Shown here piece after piece: positions 18,199 to 24,423 of a stretch of DNA of 24,423 bases. The notes beneath the pieces are model-generated. The model did not search any database. It was not told the DNA's origin and saw only the letters and a program-made list of their open reading frames with translations. This DNA is from a virus (Duplodnaviria; Heunggongvirae; Uroviricota; Caudoviricetes), in IMG/VR virus record IMGVR_UViG_2681813316_000024, positions 1-24,423 of that record; one strand, written 5' to 3'. Positions within the stretch are counted from its first letter, which is position 1. Each line of letters opens with the position of its first letter. The translations under genes were made by a program, and so were the position numbers.

Positions 18199-20436
18199 AT
18201 GTCAGACATTACACCCAATGTTGTAGTGAGTATGCCTTCGCAACTCTTCACTATGGCTCGTTCTTTTAAAGCCGTAGCTAATGGAAAGATTTATATCGGG
18301 AAAATTGACACTGACCCGGTAAACACTGAAAACCAGATTCAGGTTTATGTAGAGAACGAAGATGGTTCTCACGTTCCTGTTTCGCAACCAATCATCATTA
18401 ACGCTGCTGGATATCCGGTATATAACGGACAGATTGCCAAATTCGTAACCGTGCAAGGCCATTCTATGGCTGTTTATGATGCGTATGGTGCGCAGCAGTT
18501 CTATTTTTCGAATGTGCTGAAGTATGACCCTGACCAACTCAGGCAAGATCTTGCATCTCAAGGAGGTGTTAATCTGGTAAACGGAGCTATCTCACAGGAA
18601 GATCTTGTTTTGCAGTCGATCACAAAAATTCCAAGTTATGATAATTCTAACGTAGTCCAGGCGTGGCGCGATAGTGTTGCGACCTACGGGTATGTTTACT
18701 TCTCTAATCATTCAAAAAATCAGATGGTGTACACCGTACCGTCTACAGCTGCTAACGCTTCTTTCCTTGCGAACAGTAAAGTAATCATTGATAAAAATGT
18801 CACCCTGAGATTCGACAGTGATCTGTACTCACTGTTTAAATCGTTGCAGTACGAGGGGGAGGGTACGTTTGAATTTACGCACCTGAACTTTAAAGCAACC
18901 GGTGGAGAAGTGGATTATCTGGCTAAGCAGGCCATCCTCAACCGAAACCCTATTCGCATGAAGCGAGTGGAATGGTCAGATTGTAAAGTTTATTCCATAA
19001 ATGGTGACACGTTCTTCTATGAAGGTGAAGTCACCATATCCTCAGATAGCGCAGCTATCTTCCCCTTAACTACTGACCGTACAACAGGCCTGTTCGCACC
19101 AATAGATATTGGAGAGCATATTTCTGCACATATTCGTATGGAATCTCAGGCCGCCTCAGAAGTTGGGATTGTTCTGCGATGCTCTGGTGGTTGGATGATG
19201 TTCTATGGGGCACCAGGTGCTACACAGTGGTCTTATAGACAGAAACCAATTGGTGGTCCAGTAGCAGAAGGAACTCCATTCCCGCTGCCAGGAGGTTTAC
19301 TGTCGTACGCCCCGGGCAAAGCAACCGTTGGCGTATCACTGCAAGGTAAAAACTGGGCGCAGATAACGATGAATGGCGTTGGGATACGTTTGCCCTTTGA
19401 TACTGCTGATGTAGGGGATGTATACGAAGTTGGGTTTGTTGCACTGACCACGGCATCTGGAGGTTCTGCGCGTGTAACTGGATTATGCAGCTACACCTCT
19501 GATAATGGCGTGCACGGTAAGCCTCCACTTAATATCCTTATCCACGGTGATAGTACAGCTGAGGATTTCATTTCCGCGTTCAGCTCGTACATTCCGCAAT
19601 TAATGGATGGAGCGAACGGCCACCGTTCACATAGCATTGTAAACAAGGCAGTTGCCGGACAGACAATGAGGCAACAGTTAGATCTCCTGAAGGCTCAGGG
19701 GCCGGGTGATGCTTACATCGTTATTATGGTTGCCGGAACTAACGAAGGGCAGGCAAACCAAAACGGCGATTATATGGCGTCATTGATAGATGAGTTTGTC
19801 TTATATTGCAATGGCCTTGGTCGTATCCCTGTTTGGGTTGAGCCGTGGATGTGGTATAGCCAGTCATTTATTGGAGGGGCTGGCCAGCCATCTTCTAACT
19901 ACGACGGTGTCGCAGAGTTGCGAGAAGCTGGTAAACGCCAGATGATGAAATATGGCAATAACGTCATTTGTGTAACAACAACTCACCAGCTCCCGGCCCC
20001 ATATCCAGAGTATTTCAATACGCAATACGACCCACTTCTGCGTGATGACATTCACCAAAGCCAGTTAGGGTATCGTCTGTATGCGGAAATTATCTGCTCT
20101 GCCATTATCGACTGGTGGTCGCGTGTTGATTACACGCCAAGAGCAGCTGTTCAATGGTGGGCTGGAACAAACGTAACAGTACAGGCACCGTCAAGTTTAA
20201 CTGCCAATTCAATTAATATTAAACTGGCAGCCACTTCATTTGCGAATGGTAATACTGTTCTAACGCTGCCAAGGTGGTGTAGACCAACAGTAACAAAAAA
20301 TGTCCCTGTACCGTTCACTGCTGATGGAATATCTTACGGTATGGCGATGGCAACAATAAGCGCATCAACCGGGTCGATAACAATTAATGGATCTACTACA
20401 GCCTCACCAATATTTTACATTGATGCTTCCTGGTAG
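18199..20436 (+). CDS. Tailspike: P22 gp9-like head-binding domain fused to C-terminal SGNH/GDSL esterase domain
   Basis: ATG 18199 gives [11 protein letters not shown]...[20 protein letters not shown]...VLKYDPDQ (P22 tailspike N-domain). C-terminal part has SGNH blocks: G450-D451-S452-T (19546-19557), VAGQT, A512-G-T-N515-E (19732-19746), D616-D-I-H619 (20044-20055). Confidence 0.85.
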
Positions 20437-20441
20437 AAAAA

Positions 20442-20456
20442 GGCCGCAATGCGGCC
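20442..20456. terminator. Bidirectional intrinsic terminator between convergent tailspike and SGNH genes
   Basis: GGCCG-CAATG-CGGCC hairpin; T-run on the - strand side (TTTTT) and weaker ATCTTTTA on the + side. Confidence 0.6.
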
Positions 20457-20461
20457 ATCTT

Positions 20462-21157
20462 TTACTTCACATGTTTATTAATCTCTCTCATCCAAACGGC
20501 ATAGCCATTTTTATTTAAATGCACTCCATCATCAAAGTACAATTCAGATTTTTTATCAGATAAAAAATCTGCAGGAACTTCTATTATATTGCAGTTAACT
20601 ATGCGACTACATGTTCTATCAATAATAGAGTTAATCATGCTTATTCTTGAATTGACATGGTCTACGTCTTTTCTTGCCCCGCTTATGATTGGCAAAACTT
20701 TTAATGCATAAATATTATCAACCTTTGATACACTCTTAAGCAGTTTGTCATAATCATCAAATATTTCCTCTTCGGTTTTCGCACCCATCGCATCGTTAAC
20801 TCCACCTTCAATTATCGCAGCTTTATATCCAGACGCCCCATAATTTTCTGATAGAGTTAGGATCTGATGTATAGAGTATCCTCCGACCCCCATATTAACA
20901 TATTTAAAGTTTAACCCATATGGTGACATTCCTTGTATGAGCGAGTCGCCATAAACCACAATGTCGCCGTCAGCTTGATTAGCATTCATTTTTTTAAAAT
21001 CTAGCATCACAGCCTGAAAGTCGTTAACTTTTTTTTGAGATAAATAATTTCTAATTGAACGAACAGACAATACTATAATAACTATTGCAATCAGAATAAA
21101 CAGCATTGCCAAATATTTATTTGCTTGAGACTTTCTATTTGTTTGTTTTGACTTCAT
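20462..21157 (-). CDS. Membrane-anchored SGNH/GDSL hydrolase (putative carbohydrate O-acetyl transfer/esterase domain protein)
   Basis: 231 aa; N-terminal TM helix YLAMLFILIAIVIIVLSV; block I VVYG70-D71-S72-L (Ser codon 20942-20944), block II GVGG, block III GGVND, block V DDGVHLN; good RBS AAGGAAA; AT-rich. Confidence 0.8.
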   Translation of the reverse strand: MKSKQTNRKSQANKYLAMLFILIAIVIIVLSVRSIRNYLSQKKVNDFQAVMLDFKKMNANQADGDIVVYGDSLIQGMSPYGLNFKYVNMGVGGYSIHQILTLSENYGASGYKAAIIEGGVNDAMGAKTEEEIFDDYDKLLKSVSKVDNIYALKVLPIISGARKDVDHVNSRISMINSIIDRTCSRIVNCNIIEVPADFLSDKKSELYFDDGVHLNKNGYAVWMREINKHVK

Positions 21158-21241
21158 TGCATTTTCCTTTTAATAAGGTTTAAGGTTAAAAATATATTTA
21201 CGCTTCAAATCAACGAATTGAGAAAATTATTCAGCCAACCA

Positions 21242-21520
21242 CTAACTAGACTTGCAATCTAATCTTATATATGATCTGAGTAAGAGTGTAAAAATCCGCT
21301 TAATCCTTCTTAAGTAAAAATCGGAAAAAGAAAATTTACCGCTATTTAAATTTTTAAAAATAATACTTGAAATTAAAAGGCTAGATATTATGAAAAATAA
21401 ATCAAACCCATTGAACTCTCCAGAAAATGCGCTTGGGAAAGCGTGAAACATCACAACAGCGACTGCTCTTAAACCATCTATACCAGCTCTATACTTTATC
21501 ATTTTTATTGTCCAATTCAT
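21242..21520 (-). pseudogene. Truncated N-terminal fragment of a second AT3-family acyltransferase
   Basis: 92-aa ORF with AT3 N-terminal signature YRAGIDGLRAVAVVMFHAF...GFDLFFIIS...FYLRRIKRIF, stops after about 90 residues; no convincing RBS. Confidence 0.5.
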
Positions 21521-21816
21521 CTACAGTGAAAGAGCAAAGAAAAACAATGCAATATATCTCATGTGACTACCCCTAAAATAAATTTAATGATAATAACATC
21601 ATGAGGATAAATTTAGAAGTGGGAAGATCGGAAATGCTCATTGAGCAGCAGAAAAAATATCACTGACTCTGTATACACATACAGTATTTTTTGTCTGTTA
21701 TTGATCATTGGATACTTGAGCCTAGCGTAAAAGTAATATGAATGATACAGTATGCTTATATAATTGATTTTTGCTCTCGGTGTAAGTTCGGATTGTATTA
21801 TATAACCAGAAAATAT

Positions 21817-21835
21817 CCCCAGAACTAAGCTGGGG
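21817..21835 (-). terminator. Candidate intrinsic terminator downstream of AT3 gene
   Basis: CCCCAG (21817-21822) / CTGGGG (21830-21835) inverted repeat with 7-nt loop; on - strand followed by AUAUUUU. Confidence 0.35.
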
Positions 21836-21849
21836 ATTCATGTCATATG

Positions 21850-22890
21850 TCAGCTTGCTAGTGCGATCTTCCTAAGCCTGTGACCTATATTTATAGATGG
21901 TTTTTCAATTACCTTATAAGAAATAGTTGCTAGTGCGATCGTAGCTAATAGGTATAAAACAAAAATAATAAAATTAAAATCTGTGTCCATGTCTATACTG
22001 ACAGATACAATCTCTAAAAAGAATGGGTGAATCAAGTATACAGAGTAACTTATCGATCCCAGGAAAACCAATAATCCTACATTCAATTTTACCCGTGTAG
22101 TGAGCAATAGCGTCAATACTATGCCTGTAAGATAGCTAGCAATATAGGAGGAAGCATTTTCCCCATGCCCATAGTCTTTATTGTAGGACATTAAGCAAAT
22201 CGGAGCAATCGCCACTAGGAATGTTATTAAAAATACAATGCACATATTTCTTTCTGATCTCGATGCAATCCCAATGCTCACTGAACGCCATAAGCTACCA
22301 AAGAACATTAATGACATAGCTAGCGGTATTGCCACAGGAACTTTTTTATCAAGAACGAATCTCACGTATGAGAAAGCAAGAGCGGTTGCAATAAGTCCTA
22401 TAGAAATTAAAAATAAAGAAACCTTACTCTTTAATAAATTTACTTTGAAAAGAAACGCACAGGAAGCATAGAAGAACAACTCAATTATTAGCGTCCAATA
22501 AACACCAAACATATCTGGAGATCTCAGTAAAGATTGAAGCATGGTAATATTAGACAACAGAGTTCTTATATCAAGTGGTCTATGAGTTACAAACAAAAAA
22601 GTAAAGGCCGCCAGAAATACTGAAAACCAGTAAGCGGGATATAGTCTAAAAAACCTTGATATAATGAACCCGGATATCGCTCTTTTCCCTTCCTTTAGGC
22701 TGTAAGGTATTACCATGCCACTTAACACAAAGAAGCAAACAACACCAACCTGACCAAAGTTAACATGCTTAAATAAAAAACTGTTATGCAATGGTGTTCG
22801 CTCTATGAAATGTGCACATGCAACCATCAGGGCTGCAAGTCCACGCAAAGAGTCTAGGAATTCTAGACGATTTCCATTTCTTATAGACAT
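21850..22890 (-). CDS. AT3-family integral-membrane acyltransferase (Oac-like putative O-antigen O-acetyltransferase)
   Basis: 346 aa, about 10 hydrophobic segments; N-terminal signature LDSLRGLAALMVACAHF...GVVCFFVLSGMVI...RFFRLYPAYW typical of acyltransferase family 3; between tailspike and int as oac is in Sf6; AT-rich. Confidence 0.85.
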   Translation of the reverse strand: MSIRNGNRLEFLDSLRGLAALMVACAHFIERTPLHNSFLFKHVNFGQVGVVCFFVLSGMVIPYSLKEGKRAISGFIISRFFRLYPAYWFSVFLAAFTFLFVTHRPLDIRTLLSNITMLQSLLRSPDMFGVYWTLIIELFFYASCAFLFKVNLLKSKVSLFLISIGLIATALAFSYVRFVLDKKVPVAIPLAMSLMFFGSLWRSVSIGIASRSERNMCIVFLITFLVAIAPICLMSYNKDYGHGENASSYIASYLTGIVLTLLLTTRVKLNVGLLVFLGSISYSVYLIHPFFLEIVSVSIDMDTDFNFIIFVLYLLATIALATISYKVIEKPSINIGHRLRKIALAS

Positions 22891-23267
22891 TAAAGATACC
22901 TAAGTTAAGTGTAGTAATAGGATTAATTTTAACAGCATGATTCTGTTGATCAATGGATAAGCAGCGTGTTTTGAAGTTGATCTGATTTTTACTATGATTA
23001 TATTGTGTTCTCGCACAGTATTTTATCGTAAGTGCACTATGGGCTTCTATCTCCAGCAGCAGAACTAGTTGAAGATAGTGTGTCAATCGACAAGAGCCTT
23101 ATTGCTCCAATCTCAGTCACGTACATGATGATATCCGTCAGGTCATTATCAACGAAGAGTGTTATGGTTAGTTTGATTATTGTGCGGTGATGTGAGAAAA
23201 ACTTAGAAAAACAAAGTCTTGCACTGGATTGCAAGGCTTTGCGCTATTCGATTGTGGTTGAGGCTGA

Positions 23268-24423
23268 TCACTTCACCTTTTCATCAAGCCAATCCGCCCA
23301 CCACTGCATCATTTCTCTGCGCTTATCGAGATACTGAGCGTGGTTGTAAATCCCGCGCACAGATCCGCCGTTGGCATGTGCCAGTTGCACTTCAATAGCG
23401 TCAGCAGGCCATTCGTGCTCGTTCATAATCGTGCTGAATTCATGCCTGAATCCGTGACCGCTTTCCAGACCTTCATAGCCGATTTGTTTGATCACAAGCA
23501 GTACAGCGTTCTGGCAAATTGGCTTCTTCTTATCGTTGCGCCCGGCAAAAACAAACTCTGACACTGGTTTAGTGATTGAGCTTAGCGTAGTGAGAAGTTC
23601 AATCACCTGGTCTGACATAGGAACCACATGAATTTTTCGACCCTTCATCACACTGGCGTCGATGGTGATAATCCTGTTTTCAAAATCGACGTTCTTCCAT
23701 AGCATGGAGCGAAGCTCTTTCGTTCTTAGGGCTGTGTAGCGCAAAACTTTAGTCGCAATGAGCGATACGATGCTCCCTGAAAATGTTGCCAGTGCTTTGT
23801 TGAATGCAGGGATCTGGTCTGCAGGAAGAAACGGGAAGTTCTTCTTGCGGTATCCCTTCATGGCGTCAGCAAGGTCAGGTGCCGGGTTATATTTAGCCCT
23901 ACCAGTGACAATAGCGTAACGGAAAACCTCGCCGCATCTTCTGCGGGCTTTATTTGCTCGCTCCATTGCACCGCGATCTTCAAATCTGCGGATTACTTCC
24001 AGTAGTTGCATCGGCTCAATATCCTGAATTTCAAGACCGCCGATGATGGGTAAAATGTCGTCATCAAACATTTTTGCAAGTTCATTTGCATAGCCCTGAC
24101 CAGACTTGCTTCTTGTGCTCGTACCATTCCTTGTAAATGGCGCTAAAGGAATTGTTGTTAGACGAAGCCTTTTTCGCCTTTACCGGATCGATGCCAACCG
24201 AGATGTCTTTCCTCGCAGTCCATGCTTTATCCCTTGCCTCTTGCAAAGTCATAAGCGGATATTTTCCGACGGTCAGGATTTTCTCCTTACCGTCAATCTT
24301 GTAGCGAAGCTGCCATACCTTTTTCCCTGACACAGGGACATAAAGGTACAGGCCATTACCATCGAGTAGGCGGTATGGTTTTTCTTTCGGCTTTGCTGCT
24401 TCAATCTGCTTAACGGTGAGCAT
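23268..24423 (-). CDS. int: Tyrosine integrase (P4-type, arm-binding N-domain), interrupted by a frameshift near 24072-24100; start codon at window edge
   Basis: Two consecutive - strand ORFs (24082..24423, 113 aa, arm-type domain; 23268..24071, 267 aa, catalytic domain with R...HGFRHEF...RGIYNHAQY Tyr region). The 267-aa frame read upstream gives ...QGYANELAKMFDD continuous with the N-terminal part. Confidence 0.75.

Follow-up and report, generated by a model that had tools for sequence, protein, structure and literature searches.

OafB/GtrC of Salmonella phage BTP1 is an O-antigen rhamnose acetyltransferase in which an AT3 membrane domain and an SGNH domain are fused, and the same two-domain architecture (PF01757+PF19040) is found in OafA of S. 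Typhimurium. In OafA, R14 and H25 of the R/K-X10-H motif in transmembrane (TM) helix 1 are both essential, F41 and G46 of the FFXISG motif are invariant, an RXXR motif lies in the loop between helices 2 and 3, and a GG-F/Y-XGV-D/P/V motif at the periplasmic end of TM helix 2 is specific to fused proteins (PMC7448272). Oac of Shigella phage Sf6 belongs to a shorter type that consists of the AT3 part only, and its gene lies near the integrase gene (work cited in PMC9558356). A two-gene solution to polysaccharide O-acetylation is provided by PatA/PatB, in which a membrane acyltransferase is paired with a separate SGNH protein (PMC12148441).

The window analysed here (24,423 nt) is the right end of a P22-like Escherichia coli prophage inserted next to tRNA-Arg (argW, integrase IntS). 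An intact AT3-only, Oac-like O-acetyltransferase gene of 346 codons (AT3-346; 21850-22890, minus strand; PF01757, E 2.3e-30) and an intact stand-alone SGNH/GDSL gene of 231 codons (SGNH-231; 20462-21157, minus strand; PF13472, E 9e-14) flank a 92-codon ORF (21242-21520, minus strand; taken from a mechanical ORF listing), which we call the stub. It has the orientation and the place described in the earlier note, and 84 nt separate it from the SGNH-231 gene. The tailspike gene (18199-20436, plus strand; P22-type head-binding domain) is convergent with SGNH-231, with a bidirectional terminator between the two. The NCBI/PGAP annotation has the tailspike, an SGNH/GDSL hydrolase and an acyltransferase here, and no gene between the latter two. 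Of 5426 complete E. coli genomes, 3 have the 2.6 kb around the stub over its whole length at 100% identity. The module of the window is absent from all the sequenced phages that were searched. A scan of 20300-23400 against Rfam gave no match at E<=1, and a search for an ops/JUMPStart element near the module found none.

AT3-346 is of the same short type as Sf6 Oac (phrog_3333 ‘O-acetyltransferase’, E 5e-56) and, like oac in Sf6, it lies near the integrase gene. Its R-X10-H and FFxxSG motifs are present and the fused-type motif is absent, and its subfamily is unrelated to that of the stub. The AT3-346 gene is followed by an SGNH gene, unlike Sf6 oac, after which we know of no such gene. In having a membrane acyltransferase gene and then the gene of an extracytoplasmic SGNH protein, the layout resembles PatA/PatB (PMC12148441), although PatA is an MBOAT protein and the membrane acyltransferase here is of the AT3 family. 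The partnership of AT3-346 with SGNH-231 is a candidate only, since there are loci in which the SGNH gene has no such neighbour or comes behind an AT3-SGNH fusion that is complete. As a separate observation, a 77-nt element upstream of AT3-346 (22926-23006, minus strand) is conserved with the related contig L004 (79%) and partly with E. coli XJ55, and holds the sequence TTGATC-16-TAAAAT, which resembles a promoter and is preceded by a TG.

The 92-codon ORF begins as a fused-type acetylase

The proposal that this ORF reproduces the first two TM helices of an AT3 protein and then ends agrees with both profile and homologue matches. Pfam PF01757 matches it over profile positions 2-81 of 326 with E 2.3e-4 and 20.8 bits (gathering score 31 bits), and with 8 of the 10 AT3 helices missing the ORF does not qualify as a whole domain, which takes 10 TM helices and a score at or above the gathering threshold. 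The long PHROG 6705 ‘O-antigen acetylase’ profile of 647 positions matches at positions 4-80 with E 3.2e-23, and the short-type phrog_3333 does so more weakly, at E 1.3e-5, so that profile comparison points to the long (fused) subfamily over the AT3-only one. The translation has two hydrophobic stretches, the first of them three residues short, and aligns with residues 1-78 of a homologue that is intact and 660 aa long (74% identity, E 3e-34).

The native start of the stub is most likely the ATG at 21502 (MIKYR...), which matches that of the intact gene, and the six additional codons from 21520 are the product of a recombination joint. Codons 7 to about 80 of the ORF are thus the 5′ stub of an oafB/gtrC-like gene, and its last ~12 codons (RSYIRLDCKSS) are the 3′ end of the gene read out of frame. 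The identical ORF (P0001) is present on 43 contigs and a variant (P0002) on 2-3 others; this recurrence, together with a spacing of 693 nt between AT3-346 and SGNH-231 that is constant in all 10 of the contexts listed for proteins identical to AT3-346, rules out an assembly artefact.

A protein search with the 92-aa translation returned short fragments only, the 660-aa relatives being missed because of a word-index limit, and the intact gene was located through the neighbours of the closest SGNH homologue. Truncated OafA-like N-terminal pieces also occur elsewhere (P0022, P0004, P0020), including a 160-aa metagenomic protein in which the start of an AT3 domain runs in frame into the last part of PF19040. 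Pseudomonas and Herbaspirillum contigs of megabase size have further ones, ‘acyltransferase’ ORFs of 132-149 aa. Genes of this kind may repeatedly decay into such stubs.

Intact relatives and the extent of the deletion

On six contigs (L004-L009), a 660-aa PF01757+PF19040 gene (E 1e-30 and 6e-20, respectively) is followed after 55 nt by a 228-aa SGNH gene and then by a convergent tailspike gene. A second 660-aa version (P0052), 81% identical to the L004 protein, is found at three further loci (L137-L139), which are E. coli P22-like prophages with a tailspike gene 93% identical in nucleotides to that of the window over its whole length. In both groups the gene occupies the homologous site and precedes a tailspike of the same type, and it is here that the ancestral AT3-SGNH fusion gene postulated in the earlier note, which had recommended looking for it in related prophages, has its intact counterpart. 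The 660-aa gene is also found without a gene of the SGNH-231 type. More than 7900 proteins match it at E<=1e-50, and among the 120 matches listed, which are 657-731 aa long, all have both domains, which indicates that the long form is ancestral and the form in the window derived.

Among phage genes with a name, gtrC (OafB) of BTP1 comes closest, with 44% identity to the 660-aa protein over residues 2-440. The 660-aa relative has in common with OafB/GtrC and OafA not only the two-domain architecture but also the R-X10-H motif of TM helix 1 and the GGFxGVD, FFxISG and RxxR motifs, and like gtrC of BTP1 it sits in a conversion region beside the tailspike gene of a P22-like prophage. Searches of viral and genome contigs with the 660-aa protein gave distant relatives only (<=53% identity), whose context was uninformative, and a sequence search of the PDB gave no match.

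Alignment to L004 maps both arms of the lost gene. Window positions 21510-21291 correspond to L004 693-922, the start of the 660-codon gene, at 83% nucleotide identity over 230 aligned columns with a 9-nt gap, and positions 21296-18562 correspond at 78% identity to L004 2593-5329, which comprises the last ~90 nt of the 660-codon gene, the SGNH gene and the tailspike gene. An intact two-domain gene therefore matches both sides of the gap. What is absent from the window is L004 ~923-2598, that is, 1676 nt and codons ~75-630 of 660. The internal deletion suggested in the earlier note thus stands, but its extent is larger than the TM3-TM10 given there, as the loss of these codons took away almost the entire SGNH domain of the fusion along with TM3-TM11 and the linker. 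Its length is not a multiple of three, which accounts for the unrelated tail of the ORF.

The 5′ relic (21291..21502, minus strand, from the L004 alignment) holds codons 1 to ~74 of the 660-codon OafB/GtrC-like gene, from which 9 nt have been lost in frame within the part for TM helix 1, and the deletion joint lies at 21279..21299 (minus strand), where the left and right homologies overlap in the pairwise alignments. The 3′ relic (21205..21290, minus strand, from the frame-1 translation) holds the last ~30 codons, the end of the fused PF19040 SGNH domain. It has two in-frame stops and retains the original stop codon of the gene at 21207-21205; the old frame reads ...YSDHI, stop, D, stop, IASLVSGWLNNFLNSLI, stop, and the intact L004 protein ends in ...YSDHIPDYYATIVGDGLNKFLNSLD. 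Unlike OafB/GtrC, then, the window keeps only ~74 N-terminal and ~30 C-terminal codons, out of frame with each other and with damaged motifs.

The ancestor would have been a P22-like E. coli prophage with a 660-codon fused AT3-SGNH O-antigen acetylase gene, similar to OafB/GtrC of BTP1, between the integrase end of the prophage and the tailspike gene, the fusion gene being followed by a separate, small gene for a membrane-anchored SGNH protein. An out-of-frame internal deletion of ~1.7 kb would then have removed codons ~75-630 and left the first ~74 and the last ~30. In the intact relative, short imperfect repeats (GAWWTTT ... CTTATT) border the 1676 nt on either side, and repeats of this kind probably mediated the deletion, which is a plausible mechanism; its endpoints and the role of the repeats are approximate, because the intact relatives are 78-83% identical to the window and not its direct ancestor.

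Damage to the remnant

What remains of the AT3 domain has lost residues that are conserved in the family. In the stub, the TM helix 1 motif reads LRAVAVVMFH, an R-X7-H in which three residues have been lost between Arg and His (LRAVAVLAVVIFH in L004), so the spacing found in functional AT3 proteins, R/K-X10-H, is gone. FFIISS has Ser in place of the invariant Gly of FFXISG, RRIKR is kept, and the fused-type motif is recognizable but degenerate (GEFNGFD, vs GGFIGVD in the intact relative). The R-X10-H, GGFxGVD and FFxISG motifs are all intact in the L004 gene.

Selection was compared between the window and L010, a whole-locus allele that is 95% identical. The stub differs by four non-synonymous and no synonymous substitutions, whereas AT3-346 and the SGNH gene each differ by one non-synonymous and three synonymous ones (Fisher one-sided p ~0.03 for the stub vs its neighbours, with very few substitutions). 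Identity to L010 is 98.2% in the stub and 99.4-99.6% in the neighbouring genes. Small as the numbers are, this contrast goes in the direction expected of a pseudogene between two constrained genes. It is thus very probable that the 92-codon ORF is a pseudogene, the remnant of an internally deleted 660-codon acetylase gene of the fused type. The SGNH gene that follows it is separate and intact, which makes this a case of ordinary gene decay in a much-reshuffled prophage module. The stub would be neither expressed nor functional, and would have no acetylase activity. AT3-346, with intact motifs and under constraint, presumably does the O-antigen acetylation in this lineage now, replacing the lost fused gene.

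For annotation, positions 21205-21562 should carry the label of pseudogene remnants rather than that of a small membrane protein, and the SGNH-231 gene is not to be called a split-off domain. The stub is a commonplace pseudogene, left by an internal deletion in a gene of known type. RefSeq does not annotate it, and in itself it has little biological importance.

SGNH-231 is an independent gene

SGNH-231 is anchored in the membrane by its N terminus, and its gene has a ribosome-binding site (AAGGA) to itself. Its match to PF13472 is above the cut-off, and it has the blocks that define SGNH/GDSL hydrolases (GDS, G, GxND and DxxH): G70-D71-S72, G90, G119/N121 and D210/H213 are invariant in 24 sequences. 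The aligned homologues also have an N-terminal hydrophobic anchor and two invariant Cys. The closest one (P0024) is the 228-aa protein of L004-L009, 76% identical and with its own Shine-Dalgarno sequence. Stand-alone members of 220-245 aa form an accessory gene family of diverse temperate elements (L124-L129, L143-L145), including N15-like telomere prophages, and the family is almost absent from 50,697 deposited phage genomes, in which the best matches have 24-28% identity.

The structural model of SGNH-231 (pLDDT 86.7) has an SGNH fold with a long N-terminal helix (residues 5-61). The best Foldseek matches are a sialate O-acetylesterase of Phocaeicola vulgatus (7PZG/6NJC) and PAF acetylhydrolase Ib, with the C-terminal transferase domain of OatA (6VJP) nearly as close (E 1.5e-8 to 8e-8, TM 0.6-0.75); identity to these small acetyl-esterases and to the OatA domain is only 16-21%, and SGNH-231 differs from them in having the membrane anchor and the long helix. 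The model suggests that SGNH-231 is likely an acetyl-handling enzyme, in a fold comparison that does not separate hydrolysis from transfer. It most likely acts independently or with AT3-346. Another reading, with a small but appreciable chance, is that the family is an autonomous periplasmic O-antigen de-acetylase, which would remodel the receptor alongside tailspikes with SGNH-like domains.

The earlier note had suggested that SGNH-231 is the C-terminal half of the fusion, so that a single AT3-SGNH gene would have lost TM3-TM10 while its own SGNH domain survived under a new start and ribosome-binding site. The stub and SGNH-231 are indeed in the same orientation and only 84 nt apart, and the stub does come from an AT3 gene of the fused type. 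However, SGNH-231 belongs to PF13472 and the fused domain to PF19040, against which SGNH-231 gave no match at E<=0.1. When the two pieces are aligned to a full-length fusion homologue, as had been advised, the stub finds its place at residues 1-78, but SGNH-231 has no similarity to either the fused domain or the linker: the best local blastp match has E 0.065 and lies elsewhere in the protein, so the likeness that had been seen between its N-terminal helix and the linker helix of the fusion is not confirmed. The SGNH gene is already separate in L004-L009 and L140-L141, where it follows the intact fusion; all 28 of the homologues listed are stand-alone proteins (139-245 aa); and between the stub and SGNH-231 one can still make out the actual 3′ end of the fusion. 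An SGNH gene without an AT3 gene upstream, which had been named beforehand as evidence against such a split, occurs in L124-L129 and L143-L145, and its settings comprise N15-like elements, a P22-like prophage of Enterobacter, an Aeromonas contig that bears phage genes, E. coli prophages inserted at argW like the present one, and another E. coli prophage whose tailspike is of a different type. An origin of SGNH-231 by splitting of the fusion is accordingly very improbable.

Two other explanations concern the stub itself. It might be a partial duplicate of the neighbouring AT3-346 gene, both being AT3-family sequences in tandem orientation; we rejected this, with hardly any probability left to it, as no blastp similarity is detectable between the two, they fall in different PHROGs, and the stub has the fused-type motif, which AT3-only proteins are without. 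Somewhat less improbable, though still quite unlikely, is that the stub has been retained for a function, either as a small two-helix membrane protein or as a translated leader through which RNA polymerase from the promoter of a second, lost SGNH gene would be carried into SGNH-231. The ORF remains open (86-92 codons) in both known alleles. A terminator-like hairpin with a T-run lies directly after the stop codon of AT3-346 (21815..21837, minus strand, from a terminator scan), so transcription of SGNH-231 may have to start from a promoter in 21563-21814 and read through the stub, and the stop codon of a short relic of the lost gene abuts the ATG at 21520. On the other hand, all four of the allelic changes in the stub alter amino acids, conserved AT3-family residues are destroyed, and a promoter scan of the minus strand from 21158 to 21814 found none above threshold. 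Nor is a counterpart conserved in other lineages, in which the SGNH gene follows nothing or an intact gene. We therefore keep to the reading of the stub as a pseudogene.

A mosaic conversion region

The conversion region is a mosaic, with relics of a second SGNH gene and of a umuD-like gene besides the stub. Directly in front of the stub lies a 13-codon relic (MRYIALFFFALSL, then a stop codon; 21521..21562, minus strand) of a second, different stand-alone SGNH gene, recognized by homology to E. coli XJ55, as is the former upstream region of that lost gene (21563..21690, minus strand), which carries a LexA-box-like palindrome. Window positions 21653-21527 are 77% identical in nucleotides to XJ55, where the matching stretch takes in the first 12 codons of a 227-aa SGNH gene and the sequence upstream of them; the product of that gene has 27% protein identity to SGNH-231. 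The order of genes in XJ55 is an AT3 gene (354 aa), an IS5 element, the 227-aa SGNH gene and a tailspike gene with the same receptor-binding part; the IS5-family element between the AT3 and SGNH genes is ISKpn26 (L003 6664-7644).

The homology to XJ55 ends at 21527 and that to L004 starts at 21522, which gives a clean joint directly in front of the stub. Compared with L004, the segment 22929-21523 (AT3-346, the hairpin and the 13-codon relic) replaces ~190 nt, and homology between the window and L004 resumes at 23006-22930. Recombination would have brought in AT3-346 along with the promoter region of a different SGNH gene and 13 codons from its start. A DNA-pattern scan, a scan of viral contigs with AT3-346, the contexts of the exact protein and complete E. 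coli genomes were used to look for a donor, having both AT3-346 and the lost SGNH gene, and for an intermediate in which AT3-346 is followed by a 660-codon gene that is still intact. Neither was found in these sets, which gave only the arrangement of the window itself or E. coli XJ55.

The joint and the relics indicate that the pair of AT3-346 and SGNH-231 comes from two modules, each of which has lost its original partner. There is a small but appreciable chance that the relics record a natural module swap, in which an AT3-only acetyltransferase without its own SGNH neighbour and a membrane-anchored stand-alone SGNH enzyme without its fused OafB-like neighbour came to stand side by side, and if so, such partners are interchangeable. 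The same receptor-binding part of the tailspike (81-93% identity) stands beside four different conversion modules (in L003, L004, L137 and the window), namely a fused acetylase alone, a fused acetylase with an SGNH gene, the 354-aa AT3 gene with another SGNH gene, and the set found in the window. The stub can thus be read as a dated scar of the way in which seroconversion modules beside one tailspike type are put together anew from exchangeable parts, which are a fused acetylase like OafB, acetylases of the AT3-only type and stand-alone SGNH enzymes of two kinds. The greater interest lies in this combinatorial AT3/SGNH conversion module and in the stand-alone SGNH family as a widespread accessory gene of temperate phages.

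Esterase tailspikes are known, for example, gp63.1 of G7C. The receptor-binding part of the tailspike here has an HGDSTAEDF motif (GDS) and a weak match to PF13472; a sequence search of the PDB with the tailspike matched only its head-binding domain, so a link to the known esterase tailspikes was not demonstrated.

The LexA-box-like site, TACTGTATGTGTATACAGAG (21669-21684, minus strand), lies in the spacer after AT3-346, and no other CTGT-N8-ACAG palindrome is present in the 24-kb window. A single plausible extended -10 sequence follows ~60 nt downstream of it. In relatives, canonical boxes lie between a divergent Peptidase_S24 gene and an SGNH or acetylase gene, but no umuD-like gene stands beside the site in the window, which is more likely an orphan than a regulator of an SGNH gene. 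A decayed LexA-box-like copy, TACTGTGCGAGAACACAATA, is present upstream of AT3-346 (23001-23020, minus strand). The relic of a UmuD-like Peptidase_S24 gene is found at 23041-23184 (plus strand; 38% identity over 48 aa, E 3e-7), with DNA homology at window positions 23199-23148 and 23133-22930; its 3′ and 5′ ends are kept and its middle is absent, which indicates that this gene, too, has been internally deleted. Beyond it, the integrase gene (23268-24423, minus strand) has a 2-bp deletion at ~24095-24096 relative to the intact 385-aa intS of strain PigCaeca_1, which splits it into ORFs of 113 and 267 aa and could reflect either a defective prophage or a sequencing error.
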